Origin: Bacteroidales bacterium
GTDB taxonomy: Bacteria > Bacteroidota > Bacteroidia > Bacteroidales > UBA932
DNA length: 64,000 bases
Assembly: GCA_021371955.1 (NCBI GenBank)
Contig: JAJFVD010000014.1
Location: 20,538 to 84,537 of the forward strand
Direction: 5' to 3'
Part shown: piece after piece, positions 14,547-39,280 of the stretch
How the letters are laid out: each line of letters starts with the position of its first letter
How positions within the stretch are numbered: the stretch's first letter is position 1
The notes under the pieces: generated by a model
The model's input: only the letters and a program-made list of their open reading frames with translations
The model's database searches: none
Told to the model about the DNA's origin: nothing
Made by a program: the position numbers and the translations under genes

Positions 14547-14655
14547 TTCCCCTGGGGAAATTTGTTAAGTAGCTCACAGCTTGCAATTTAAACCATTTTC
14601 CCAAAAGTAGCTATCTCATTCATTTTCTGCAAATTAACAAATTTCCCCTGGGGAA
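14547..14655. repeat. 95-bp-spaced inverted-arm element, copy 1 (TTCCCC arm type)
   Basis: TTCCCCTGGGGAAATTTGTTA ... TAACAAATTTCCCCTGGGGAA; core centres 14553/14649 (96 apart). Confidence 0.9.
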
Positions 14656-16410: not shown

Positions 16411-16469
16411 GACGCCTTTTTCCCCGACGCCCTTTCCCCCGACGCCCTTTCTCCGACGCCGTTTTCCCC
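16411..16469 (+). repeat. 4 tandem ~15-bp units GACGCCNTTTTCCCC
   Basis: Units start at 16411, 16426, 16441 and 16455; the last is the outer half of the copy 2 left arm. Confidence 0.85.
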
Positions 16470-16572
16470 AGGGGAAATTTGTTATGTCGCTCATAACGTG
16501 CAACTTAAACCTCTGAGCCAAAAAGGGCTATTTCATTCATCTACTGCAAATTACCAAATTTCCCCTGGGGAA
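16464..16572. repeat. Inverted-arm element, copy 2
   Basis: TTCCCCAGGGGAAATTTGTTA ... TACCAAATTTCCCCTGGGGAA; centres 16470/16566 (96). Confidence 0.9.
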
Positions 16573-16624
16573 AAACGGCACCCTGACGGTTGGCTGCGCA
16601 CACGGTGTCGGCCTTCCTTCTCCG

Positions 16625-16696
16625 CCTCTGGACTCACCCCTCCACCCTTGGGGTCACCCCTCCACCTCTGGACTCACCACTCCACCCCTGGGGTCA
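16625..16696 (+). repeat. Tandem 20-bp units in an ABAB pattern
   Basis: cctctggactcacccctcca / cccttggggtcacccctcca / cctctggactcaccactcca / cccctggggtca. Confidence 0.85.
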
Positions 16697-16788
16697 TTTG
16701 GTACTCCACTGGTTATAAGCCAATTACCAAAATCACTTAAAACACTAAGTACCTGTAAATATGCACGATACCAAATGACCCCTGGGGT
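16684..16788. repeat. Inverted-arm element, copy 3 (ACCCC...TCATTTGGTA arm type)
   Basis: ACCCCTGGGGTCATTTGGTA ... TACCAAATGACCCCTGGGGT; centres 16689/16783 (94). Confidence 0.9.
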
Positions 16789-20170: not shown

Positions 20171-20280
20171 TTCTAAAATGCTTATTGTCTGCAAAATTAT
20201 ATATTTATTTGGGATTTACTCTTTTAAGCATCATAATGTGTAAATAATCCTGCAATGCTATGCTTTGTGGGACGCAGTTT

Positions 20281-20389
20281 TTCCCCAGGGGAAATTTGTT
20301 ATATCGTTCATAATGTGCGACTTAAACCCACAAACCAAAAGGGACTATCTCATTCATTTTCTGCAAGTTAACAAATTTCCCCTGGGGAA
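20281..20389. repeat. Inverted-arm element, copy 4
   Basis: TTCCCCAGGGGAAATTTGTTA ... TAACAAATTTCCCCTGGGGAA; centres 20287/20383 (96); interior similar to copies 1 and 2. Confidence 0.9.
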
Positions 20390-20509
20390 AAACGGCACCC
20401 AAGGTTGGGCGGCAAGGGTGGGCGGAACAGGTGTGGTCGGTGAGAAAGGGGTAAAAAGAACATTTAAAATAATTTTCCTATCTTTATATAATTGGTAAAA
20501 CCATTATCC

Positions 20510-25863: not shown

Positions 25864-27669
25864 ATGCAATTTAAAGAATTAGAAATTATCGAGCCTATTC
25901 TTAAGGCTCTGATCAACGAGGGATATTCGATCCCTACACCAATTCAGGAAAAAGCAATACCAATTATTCTAAATAACAGGGATGTATTGGGCTGTGCGCA
26001 AACTGGAACAGGCAAAACAGCTGCTTTTACAATTCCTATCCTTCAGCATCTTTACGGCAATGTTAACCAAGGCCGTAACAAGCAAATTAAAGCACTTGTT
26101 CTAACACCAACCAGGGAACTGGCAGTACAAATCGGCGATAGCTTTTCGGCCTACGGAAGGTACACCTCACTTTCTCACACTGTTGTTTACGGCGGAGTGA
26201 GCCAAAGGGCACAAACTGATGCTCTCAGACGCGGAGTAGACATACTAATCGCAACACCGGGTCGTCTATTGGACCTTATGAACCAAGGCTATATCAACCT
26301 AAGAAATATTGACCATTTTGTTCTCGACGAAGCAGACAGAATGCTTGATATGGGATTTATTGACGACATTCACCGTATTGTTGACATAATCCCTCAAGAA
26401 AGGCAGACACTCTTTTTCTCGGCTACAATGCCCGATGAAATTGCACATTTTGCCAACAAGATCCTGAATAATCCTGTGAAGATTGAGGTAACTCCTACAG
26501 CTTCTACAGTGGATACAATTGAACAATACCTTTATTTTGCCGACAGGGAACAAAAAATTCCTTTGCTCATTGACCTTTTACAGGACGAAAGCAAAGAGAG
26601 CGTTTTAGTTTTCTCAAGGACAAAACATGGTGCCGATAAAATCGCAAAATCTCTTCTCCACGCAGGAATTGAGACAGATGCAATCCACGGAAACAAATCA
26701 CAATTTGCCCGTCAGAACACACTTAACAGCTTCAAGAAACGCAAAACCCGCGTGCTCATTGCAACAGACATCGCAGCAAGGGGAATTGACATCAACAAGC
26801 TGACACACGTTATAAACTTTGACCTTCCGGAAACTCCTGAAACTTATGTACACCGTATCGGACGTACAGGCAGAGCAGGTGAATCGGGTATCGCACTCTC
26901 TTTCTGTGACAAGAAAGAAATGGCTTTTCTGAAGAACATTCAGAAACTTACCGGCAAGAAGATTGAAGTTGTGAATAAAAATATGTCTGAACTTCCGGCT
27001 TATACTCCGGTAAAAGACGATTCAGACAGAGGTTACACTGTTACTCACAATGGCAGAGGCGGAAGCTCCGATCGCAGACGCGAAGGCGGATCGGATCGCA
27101 GGAGTGAAGGTCGTGGTGGCGAAGGCCGCAGCGACAGACGCTCAGACGGAAGACGTGACGGTCGCAGCGCATCAGGCGAAAGTCGCGGATACGCAGGACG
27201 CAGCAGCGAAGGTCGCAGCAATTCAGGCGAAAGCCGCGGATATGCAGGTCGCAGCAGCGAAGGCCGCAGCAATTCGGGTGAAAGCCGCGGATACGCAGGT
27301 CGCAGCAGTGACGGTCGCAGCAATTCCGGTGAAAACCGCGGATATGCAGGTCGTACCTCATCTTTTGAAAAACGCGGATATCCACGCAGAGGTGAAGGCC
27401 GCAGCGAAGAAGGACAATTCAATGAAAGAGGCGGAAACATCAAGGTTGAACAAGTTTTGATGAACCAGAAATCTTTCAACTGGAGAGAACTAATCGAGAG
27501 CGATTTCAAAGGAGAAAACCTCAAAACAAGCGTTAACGGAAATAGCACAAACGAACGTCCGGCACGCAAGAAATCTGATTCAGGACGCCCGGAAAGATCC
27601 TCACGCTCAGCACGCCCGGCACGTAAAACCGGCGGCAGCTTCTGGAACAGACAAAGACGCTCTGCATAA
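25864..27669 (+). CDS. DEAD-box RNA helicase (RhlE-like) with long low-complexity C-terminal tail
   Basis: AQTGTGKT, PTRELA, DEAD, SAT, HRIGRTGRAG. Confidence 0.95.
   Translation: MQFKELEIIEPILKALINEGYSIPTPIQEKAIPIILNNRDVLGCAQTGTGKTAAFTIPILQHLYGNVNQGRNKQIKALVLTPTRELAVQIGDSFSAYGRYTSLSHTVVYGGVSQRAQTDALRRGVDILIATPGRLLDLMNQGYINLRNIDHFVLDEADRMLDMGFIDDIHRIVDIIPQERQTLFFSATMPDEIAHFANKILNNPVKIEVTPTASTVDTIEQYLYFADREQKIPLLIDLLQDESKESVLVFSRTKHGADKIAKSLLHAGIETDAIHGNKSQFARQNTLNSFKKRKTRVLIATDIAARGIDINKLTHVINFDLPETPETYVHRIGRTGRAGESGIALSFCDKKEMAFLKNIQKLTGKKIEVVNKNMSELPAYTPVKDDSDRGYTVTHNGRGGSSDRRREGGSDRRSEGRGGEGRSDRRSDGRRDGRSASGESRGYAGRSSEGRSNSGESRGYAGRSSEGRSNSGESRGYAGRSSDGRSNSGENRGYAGRTSSFEKRGYPRRGEGRSEEGQFNERGGNIKVEQVLMNQKSFNWRELIESDFKGENLKTSVNGNSTNERPARKKSDSGRPERSSRSARPARKTGGSFWNRQRRSA
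27157..27353 (+). repeat. Coding tandem repeat, 51-bp unit (GESRGYAGRSSEGRSNS, about 4 units)
   Basis: Units start at 27175, 27226, 27277 and 27328; differences are mostly synonymous. Confidence 0.9.
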
Positions 27670-38258: not shown

Positions 38259-38345
38259 TCCTATTATTTAAAGAACGCAAATGTAAGAAATAAAATGGCC
38301 ACACAGTTACACCAGACCGCACCACACTTTTTCCACCACACTGTT

Positions 38346-38453
38346 TTCCCCAGGGGAAATATGTTATAATACACACTATCAAGGCATTGTGGCTATTTCT
38401 GAAAACGCATAAACTATTGATTAACTACACTTTAACAAATTTCCCCTGGGGTA
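38346..38453. repeat. Inverted-arm element, copy 7
   Basis: TTCCCCAGGGGAAATATGTTA ... TAACAAATTTCCCCTGGGG; centres 38352/38447 (95). Confidence 0.9.
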
Positions 38454-38925: not shown

Positions 38926-39035
38926 GTACCCCATAGGAATATTGGTATAACATTGGAATAGCGGCGTTTATGAAACATTCTAAATACCAACAAGTGCCTT
39001 ACTCACAATACTATAACAACATTCCTATGGGGTAC
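38926..39035. repeat. Inverted-arm element, copy 8 (variant arms)
   Basis: GTACCCCATAGGAATATTGGTATA ... TATAACAACATTCCTATGGGGTAC; centres 38933/39028 (95). Confidence 0.8.
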
Positions 39036-39080
39036 GGGGGTTTGGTTTAGTCCTCCCGGACCGAAGAGTTGCTCCTCTCA

Positions 39081-39131
39081 CCCTCGTTTTCCACCTCCGT
39101 TTTCCACCCCGTTTTGCACCCCGTTTTCCCC
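39081..39131 (+). repeat. 4 tandem 12-13-bp units CCCCGTTTTCCA
   Basis: Units start at 39081, 39094, 39107 and 39119; the last runs into the copy 9 left arm. Confidence 0.8.
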
Positions 39132-39233
39132 AGGGGAAATTTGTTATTATGCTGGTATTAATGGCGTTATGAATATTTTGAAAAACAAACAAATCGCTTA
39201 TTTACTGCGTTTTAACAAATTTCCCCTGGGGAA
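39126..39233. repeat. Inverted-arm element, copy 9
   Basis: TTCCCCAGGGGAAATTTGTTA ... TAACAAATTTCCCCTGGGGAA; centres 39132/39227 (95). Confidence 0.9.
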
Positions 39234-39280
39234 AAAGCCTGCCCTGGGTGGGGGTGGGTTCGGGAGGGCCGGCTGCCGGG

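Follow-up and report, generated by a model that had tools for sequence, protein, structure and literature searches.

How does the end of a short repeat element come to be copied several times beside itself, each copy breaking off at the centre of the terminal palindrome? The question is raised by positions 16411-16469 of the window, a 64,000-nt stretch of a Bacteroidales genome (G000; 2.5 Mb, 40% G+C, 98.3% complete) that lies on a 92-kb contig (C12). An earlier note on this DNA had described a four-fold stutter there, had taken its unit to be flank plus the outer half of the left arm, and had attributed it to repeated nicking and re-synthesis, or to slippage, at the core palindrome, which would then mark where a mobilising enzyme cuts.

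The array and the element family beside it

The array follows the formula GACGCC-N-T(3-5)-C(2-5), with n = 4 units of 14-15 bp (GACGCCTTTTTCCCC / GACGCCCTTTCCCCC / GACGCCCTTTCTCC / GACGCCGTTTTCCCC, then AGGGGAAATTTG), and its proximal unit stops at CCCC^A (^, boundary or cut), after the fourth C of the core CCCCAGGGG (16466-16474). TRF gave period 15, 4.0 copies and score 70, and also period 29 with score 83; in the whole genome 21 tandem repeats scored at least 70, seven of them non-coding by a rough definition. Four units also stand at this position in L137-L145, nine independent assemblies of metagenomes or runs, and because these come from different samples the array is not an assembly artefact. 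The letters, TRF and the nine further assemblies thus establish the stutter as real, and the sequence bears out a unit in which flank is joined to the outer half of the terminal palindrome and which stops before the central A. The single unit (GACGCAGTTTTTCCCC) of a second element, copy 4 at 20283, and a right flank identical to that of the 16466 element (AAAAACGGCACCC) were also as the earlier note had it; in the relative G048 the unit at copy 4 reads GACGCCGTTTTCCCC, the same as the proximal unit of the array. With units 80% alike and a constant four of them in ten strains, the array is not very recent. The outer unit boundaries are G^G, T^G and T^C, without a C^W step. When the region was folded as ssDNA, the right flank paired with the proximal unit only and the three distal units were unpaired. 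Exact look-up gave matches for the 170-aa protein encoded downstream and no record for the 510-aa protein encoded upstream.

The core motif CCCCWGGGG occurs 17 times in the window (0.39 expected). G000 carries approximately 27 elements of 103-105 bp, each with two such cores 94-96 bp apart, which gives 54 oriented half-sites; all elements within the window are intergenic. Elements were present in just 4 of 52 genomes of the genus. Several arm types were distinguished: type A (half-site consensus from outside to inside, c..TTTTCCCCAGGGGAAATTTGtTA.a..GC.gAtaaT), type B (cA-CCCCWGGGG-TCATTTGGTA) and a third, type C. When half-sites are read from outside to inside, the W of the core is nearly always A; the two ends are therefore true inverted repeats, each with a 15-17-bp mini-palindrome (TTTTCCCC-W-GGGGAAAA; TTTCCCC-W-GGGGAAA). 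The 16466 element folds as ssDNA into one long hairpin (-34.9 kcal/mol, z -4.75). No Rfam family reached its gathering score in the window, and the half-site consensus contains no GTAG or CGTC column. The features are collected in Table 1; the G-rich zone to the right of the 16466 element is possibly a decayed mirror stutter.

Table 1. Coordinates of the array, the neighbouring elements, other flank arrays and the bracketed gene (window positions unless a contig is given)
Feature	Position	Strand	Remarks
Four-unit tandem array	16411..16469	+	Unit, GACGCC hexamer + one variable base + T-run + C-run
Type-A REPIN-like element	16466..16570	.	Inverted REPs TTTTCCCCAGGGGAAATTTGTTA..., cores 16466-16474 and 16562-16570; absent here in G048 and G013
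Right flank AAAAACGGCACCC	16571..16583	+	Approximately the inverted complement of the proximal unit; identical to that of the 20283 copy
G-rich right-flank zone	16584..16611	+	Three ACGG-N4 motifs, 12-16-nt spacing; ~65% like the 20283 flank
20-bp array, x3.2 to x4	16620..16696	+	Degenerate type-B cores + flank, running into the type-B element; absent in G048
Type-B REPIN-like element	16685..16787	.	CA-CCCCWGGGG-TCATTTGGTA...; in G048; missing from L122 and G013
Single unit GACGCAGTTTTTCCCC	20271..20286	+	At the left end; the 16466 element probably derives from this lineage
Type-A element (copy 4)	20283..20387	.	88-92% like the 16466 element
Right-flank 13-mer CAAGGKTGGGCGG	20400..20425	+	Two copies in G000, one in G048; L122 with different stutters
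Two-unit left-flank stutter CACCACACTKTTTTC(C)	38320..38349	+	At element 38348-38451; one unit in G048
Four-unit left-flank stutter CACCCCGTTTTC	39079..39129	+	At element 39128-39231; five units in L099
RAYT-like gene, 251 aa	C9:181960-182715		Type-A copies at 181814-181918 and 182783-182887

Some further repeats were seen in passing. Miniature forms have cores parted only by AAATTTG-N-CAAATTT or by 13 nt (L132; G016 C92:5636-5668; G048, locus L067, where the form lies opposite window 14549-14653), and they represent deletion derivatives of the element or, alternatively, its primordial forms. A different hairpin repeat (aggtgctcct.cgtcgcaggtctacgccttcggcg...) abuts several type-B or solo cores (G000 C1:93350, C9:26630 and C11:63685; L071; L075) and could constitute a further repeat family found alongside them. 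G000 and L099 share a 190-bp block at window 38926-39122 that comprises a variant element (core CCCCATAGG/CCTATGGGG) and the 39079 array; G048, G016 and L105 lack it. A 51-bp tandem repeat at 27160-27353 (3.8 copies, 88% matches) lies within a long ORF (25864-27669) that probably encodes a repeat-containing protein.

G000 has five Y1_Tnp genes, one of which, on contig C9, is bracketed by two type-A elements. The 251-aa product scored 35 bits against Pfam Y1_Tnp (cut-off 23), carries the HUH motif as NHVH at residue 58 and YILLNP at 116, and scored 57.5 bits (E 1.3e-15) against the NCBIfam model of REP-associated tyrosine transposases (NF047646), below its cut-off of 80; a PDB sequence search with it returned no relative. 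At the same chromosomal spot G048 encodes a 59%-identical enzyme (C1:1875541-1876350, L069) with type-B copies on either side. Enzyme variant and arm type thus co-vary, A in G000 and B in G048, in a comparison of two genomes only. The element of approximately 104 bp and the bracketed C9 gene together are a REPtron/REPIN layout (or possibly, in the nomenclature of Di Nocera 2013, a 'TIRtron'). Just upstream of its enzyme G048 keeps a solo type-A core, which suggests allele replacement. Approximately 14 of the 27 or so full elements of G000 lie on contig C12, with the bracketed gene on C9. Two further Y1_Tnp genes of G000 each lie between unrelated perfect palindromes of their own, TACTAAAAAGGATGGCATCT/AGATGCCATCCTTTTTAGTA and CTAAAAACAAACAGACAT/ATATCTGTTTGTTTTTAG (C6:218692-221937, L011; C5:8933-12184, L013), and G000 therefore has several separate REPtron-like loci. 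A DDE-type MITE was considered and rejected: neither a target duplication nor a matching IS was found, and the sole bracketed gene is a Y1 transposase. At empty or solo sites a single core or a microrepeat of AAAA was seen, and no constant duplication.

Frequency, endpoints and turnover of flank arrays

Nine tandem-repeat loci (period at least 6) reached into the 69 nt that flank each of the 54 half-sites on the outward side (3.7 kb in all), against 1.2 expected from genome length and 3.4 from a conservative non-coding density (P ~0.009). Of the seven strongest non-coding repeats in the genome, three lie directly against element ends. Tandem repeats are thus commoner beside the elements than elsewhere; the contrary would, by the earlier note, have refuted its reading. 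Across four genomes and 51 metagenome contigs, a flank array accompanied 25 of 224 non-identical half-sites. Within approximately 40 nt of the elements the flanks have a higher G+C content and are C-skewed 5′ of each REP, and the right side is G-rich; right flanks contain G-runs (G4-like; for example, window 39246-39270). In 170 type-A half-sites the outer-half motif T3+C3+ was found 11 times in near flanks and twice in far flanks, whereas the inner-half motif G3+A3+ was found once. The TTTCC k-mer was not enriched in flanks (22 vs. 20). CACC, CCAC and CACCCC were 4-7 times more common in near flanks (-64 to -5, 211 half-sites) than 150 nt away, an enrichment for which outer-arm stuttering gives no account. 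Pairing of one flank with the other as an extended stem gave a mean of 12.0 pairs, which is not above the 11.5 obtained after shuffling (P = 0.71).

Counted from the first C of the core, the inner ends of the 25 flank arrays lay anywhere between -35 and +11. Several arrays lay wholly in the flank, and two, the 16620-16696 array and one on C10 of G000, copy whole cores; the units of the former (whole core + TCA) are a counter-example to a centre boundary. A gap-free boundary scan, which misses stutters with indels and picks internal unit pairs, found no single hot spot. As a general rule, then, the claim that endpoints are tied to the core centre failed, but it held for a recurrent subclass, in which units of 12-16 nt (6-11 nt of flank, a T-run and a C-run) end where the central base starts. 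By a small and partly hand-curated count, such centre-ending stutters occur in at least five independent sites or lineages. Beside the 16411 array, these are L092 at the C5:56309 element (GACCGGTTTCCC/GACCGGTTTTCCCC/AGGGG; one unit in G000 and G048), L111 with two units at copy 4 (GGGTGCCGTTTTCCCC/GACGCAGTTTTAGTTTTCCCC/AGGGG; junction CCCC^GACGCA), L131 at 38348 (TTCCTCGTTTTCCC/TCCCCTCGTTTTCCCC/AGGGG, its boundary uncertain by 1-2 nt) and, in mirror image, the right end of a type-C element in G048 (A/GGGGTGCAGCCTCTG/GGGGTGCTGGCTCTG). The 38320 and 39079 arrays fit the subclass if CCAC is taken as a mutated CCCC. Base-by-base comparison at three junctions (16411, L092 and the G048 right end) found no shared microhomology, and this lack at founding junctions argues against simple slippage. 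When the 16411 array was left out, the clustering at the centre had a roughly estimated P of 0.07.

The 16411 locus differs among relatives. G013 has a 62-bp gap without an element, G048 a type-B element only (TAGTTTCGCTGGGGGCGCCT-CCCCA-CCCCTGTGGTCA...), L122 a type-A element only, with different flanks, and G000 together with nine close strains the array, the type-A element, the 20-bp array and the type-B element. The 16466 type-A copy, together with its left flank GACGCCGTTTT and right flank AAAAACGGCACCC, matches the lineage of the 20283 copy. Unit number among strains gave a mixed picture: at this locus ten close strains have four units and G048, L122 and G013 have none, and elsewhere the number differs. 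The 39079 array has four units in G000, five in L099 and none in three strains (G048, G016 and L105, in which the flank reads TACCCGG^GTTTTCCCC), the 38320 array two or one, the C5:56309 array one or two and the 20400 right-flank 13-mer two or one; at the 38348 element L131 has a different two-unit stutter. Flanks differ wholly between strains that are otherwise 94-99% identical.

Unit sequences at the 16411 locus also turn over. Among 15 columns that differ between L141 and L140 in 2.8 kb, 12 fall inside the 55-nt array; the element and the 2.6 kb that follow it contain none. Unit 2 of L141 corresponds to unit 3 of L137 (one edit) and unit 3 of L141 resembles the proximal unit, a pattern that implies a register shift of the kind expected if a unit had been gained beside the core and one lost distally. 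In L137, it is the outermost unit that is identical to the proximal one; the neighbour of the proximal unit is not, which counts against an enzymatic origin.

Relatives without an element often keep one core, with the inner part plus one core (approximately 95 bp) exactly missing (L088 compared with C12:88365; G013 with window 39128 and C9:182783; G048 with window 37039). Opposite C12:88365, G048 has a true empty site (GGTAAGAAAA^TATTTTT). The one-core remnants put break or recombination points inside the cores, but an equally good account of them is slippage between the direct repeats that lie at the hairpin base. We also tried to fix the side of the cut from the central W of solo cores; three of three keep A, but the element is symmetric and the sample is too small, and the approach was dropped.

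Possible enzymatic and other origins of the stutters

The half-palindrome stutters suggest scars of an enzyme that cuts the palindrome at its centre. As the best reading, though a little short of an even chance, we propose that a RAYT produced the 16411 array by nicking the palindrome at its C^W centre, after which a short stretch was resynthesised and the strand transferred. Depending on the strand, the core centre reads C^A or C^T. According to PMC3333891, E. coli TnpA-REP cuts ssDNA at C^T, stays on the 5′ phosphate and leaves a 3′-OH; it carries out strand transfer in vitro, and tandem BIME units, the number of which varies by strain, were proposed there to arise when the extended 3′-OH attacks the phosphotyrosine. 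In PMC8266576, a Marinomonas RAYT is described as cutting both C^T and C^A. Applied to half a palindrome, this BIME-amplification model (Ton-Hoang et al. 2012, Fig. 7B, PMC3333891) would run as follows. The cognate RAYT would nick ssDNA at the C^W step in the centre of the terminal palindrome, a host polymerase would extend the 3′-OH by approximately 12-16 nt, and the enzyme-bound 5′ end would be rejoined by strand transfer, adding one unit; later slippage, unequal exchange within the array and point mutation would reshuffle the units. A centre cut followed by resynthesis and rejoining would yield a fixed boundary at the centre, a variable boundary 12-16 nt farther out and no microhomology, as well as one-sided arrays with new units beside the core. 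The anatomy of the array, its association with element ends, the variability among strains and the bracketing of the RAYT gene by the repeats are direct observations; the nick, its position and the steps of synthesis and rejoining are what we infer, the position of the cut being deduced purely from where the stutters stop.

Several observations argue for this enzymatic origin: the element is REPIN-like and a RAYT-like gene is bracketed by type-A copies (type B in G048); tandem repeats are enriched at element ends; half-palindrome stutters end at the C-run in at least five sites or lineages; the flanks contain copies of the outer half at 11 to 1 over the inner half; and turnover is far quicker in the array than in the DNA around it (L141/L140), with unit matches that imply a new proximal unit. 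In addition, characterised RAYTs cut C^T or C^A and perform strand transfer (PMC3333891, PMC8266576), and a subset of the published TIRs of RAYT-like TIRtrons begin with GGGGWSAS, the inner half of such a core (PMC3733652). Against it, characterised RAYTs cut outside the stem-loop under the guidance of GTAG, which is missing here; a second enzymatic cut at the outer boundary is unsupported, there being no C^W step; many flank arrays end elsewhere and some copy whole cores; and the array, constant at four units in ten strains, is not very recent. The earlier proposal that the core centre is the cut site is therefore a reasonable hypothesis, which fits the dinucleotides cut by RAYTs and the excess of outer-half copies, but not the position, outside the hairpin, at which characterised RAYTs cut. 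A broader form of the idea, which we consider doubtful, is that the stutters are in vivo footprints of a Bacteroidales RAYT class (group-1-like, NHVH/YILLNP) that would cut the CCCC^W apex and, by resynthesis primed from the nick and by strand transfer, make the 30-60 nt beside every REPIN hypermutable and C-skewed.

The stutters could also have arisen independently of any RAYT, if the REPIN hairpin or mini-palindrome stalls replication and causes slippage, template misalignment or flap mis-processing, with unequal sister exchange later and a centre boundary by chance. This explanation, the main rival, which we hold to be rather unlikely, would accommodate the wide variation of flank arrays in period and endpoint, including those that are all flank and those with whole cores, and the 1-2-nt boundary ambiguity (C/CC) of the 38320 and 39079 arrays. 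Solo cores are explicable by slippage across the hairpin between direct repeats of 7-15 nt, and a difference of four vs. five units between strains is typical minisatellite behavior. However, the founding junctions CCCC^GACGCC, CCC^GACCGG and CTCTG^GGGG lack microhomology, and a polymerase stalled by a template hairpin should halt at the hairpin base and would not be expected to reach the apex. The preponderance of outer-half over inner-half copies likewise speaks against it, as does the occurrence of arm-type stutters in the lineage with the matching enzyme, for which few cases are available.

A quite improbable alternative is that no local process was involved and that the array, or most of it, was imported with the element from a donor locus or through homologous recombination among divergent alleles at this intergenic hot spot. 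Compared with G048, approximately 264 bp (array, element, right flank and part of the 20-bp array) differ as a single indel; the match to the copy-4 lineage covers the element together with 13 nt or more of either flank, and L111 already has two units at copy 4. The L141/L140 differences begin approximately 90 nt upstream, in the gene, like a recombination tract, and three strains hold A only, B only or A+B at the gap. Import would, however, merely shift the origin of the stutter to another site, and the GACGCC part of the unit overlaps a native flank, GG(A/G)CGCCT, that is shared with G048. Moreover, one REP end (38348) has different stutters according to lineage (G000 vs. L131 vs. G048).

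Selection of the array for a function, as a C-rich, G-poor Rho-loading (rut-like) tract before a hairpin or as iterated protein-binding sites, appears very unlikely. The array begins 3-10 nt past the stop codon of an acyl-CoA synthetase-like gene, and approximately 55% of its bases are C when read as mRNA. A C-rich 5′ side and a G-rich 3′ side are general in element flanks, and E. coli REPs affect termination and mRNA stability. Yet the same skew is found at the 20283 copy, which lies between divergent promoters, the units are hypervariable in sequence even where strains are nearly identical, close relatives that have the same genes lack the array, and a spacing of 15 bp is not helical. Nicking of CCWGG by very-short-patch repair (Dcm/Vsr) or by a CC^WGG restriction enzyme, for which the CCWGG within the core and C-to-T changes in some units or cores (CTCC, CCTCAGGGG) could be cited, appears exceedingly improbable, given that Vsr (PF03852) and a C5 cytosine methylase (PF00145) were not found in the 98.3%-complete genome and that the predicted Vsr nick, CCC^T, should give units with W, none of which was observed.

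Comparison with known systems

What the stutters mean depends on their origin. How RAYTs copy REPINs is still unsettled, and the few RAYTs assayed are all proteobacterial. If the unit boundary is the cut, it would be a sequence-only readout of the cleavage position of a Bacteroidales enzyme and natural evidence for the nick, extension and strand-transfer amplification proposed from in vitro work; it would also account for the hypervariable, skewed DNA beside the elements and bear on assembly breaks and strain typing. If, further, the apex-cutting class were true, stutter boundaries in ordinary genome data could reveal the cut sites of unassayed HUH enzymes. If only hairpin-driven slippage is at work, the array is an ordinary minisatellite next to a repeat.

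Like IS200/IS605 elements (IS608, ISDra2), the system here has hairpin ends and a predicted Y1 HUH single-strand chemistry and lacks a fixed target duplication, and the loss of the inner part plus one core, leaving a single core, resembles their 'peel and paste' transposition. In contrast to the elements described here, IS200/IS605 elements have cleavage sites distant from their hairpins, chosen by guide pairing, and carry their own gene. To our knowledge, stuttered ends are not a feature of IS200/IS605 elements.

The family shares with REPIN-RAYT and REPtron systems (Bertels & Rainey 2011, PMC3116915; Ton-Hoang 2012, PMC3333891; Corneloup 2021, PMC8266576) the intergenic pairs of inverted REPs, the long hairpin and the bracketed Y1/HUH gene, as well as the patchy distribution, the polymorphism of copies between strains and the covariation of arm type with enzyme variant. 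It differs in that the GTAG/CGTC tag is missing and the conserved end is the mini-palindrome, and the enzyme, of Bacteroidales and not of proteobacterial origin, stays under the NCBIfam cut-off. Group-1-like RAYTs are usually held to be without associated repeats: for Y1 enzymes of subclass 2.1 ('group 1') no REP association is tabulated in PMC6006769. The C9 enzyme, which is bracketed by repeats, resembles this subclass by its motifs NHVH/YILLNP.

TIRtrons (TIRYT; Di Nocera et al. 2013, PMC3733652) are similar in that RAYT-like genes lie between TIRs that also form dispersed families. A subset of these TIRs share GGGGWSAS, which type-B arms (GGGGTCAT) match in 7 of 8 positions and type-A arms (GGGGAAAT) in 6 of 8; the type-C arms read GGGGTTTC and GGGGTCAA. 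In the sections consulted of PMC3733652 and of the literature on REPIN/RAYT and TIRtrons, we found no description of half-palindrome stutters or of a half-palindrome plus flank stutter that ends at the centre of the palindrome. Tandem amplification next to REPs has already been published, together with an enzymatic model for it.

A further parallel is this tandem BIME amplification (PMC3333891, Fig. 7B). As there, the units adjoin REPs and vary in number or sequence by strain, and the proposed nick, 3′-OH extension and attack on the 5′-phosphotyrosine could operate here, a cut at C^T or C^A being consistent with the core centre. The unit differs, comprising here half a palindrome and 6-11 nt of flank (12-16 nt in all) and in BIMEs a whole REP pair, and the cut, which in the BIME model lies outside the stem, would here fall at the apex of the palindrome.
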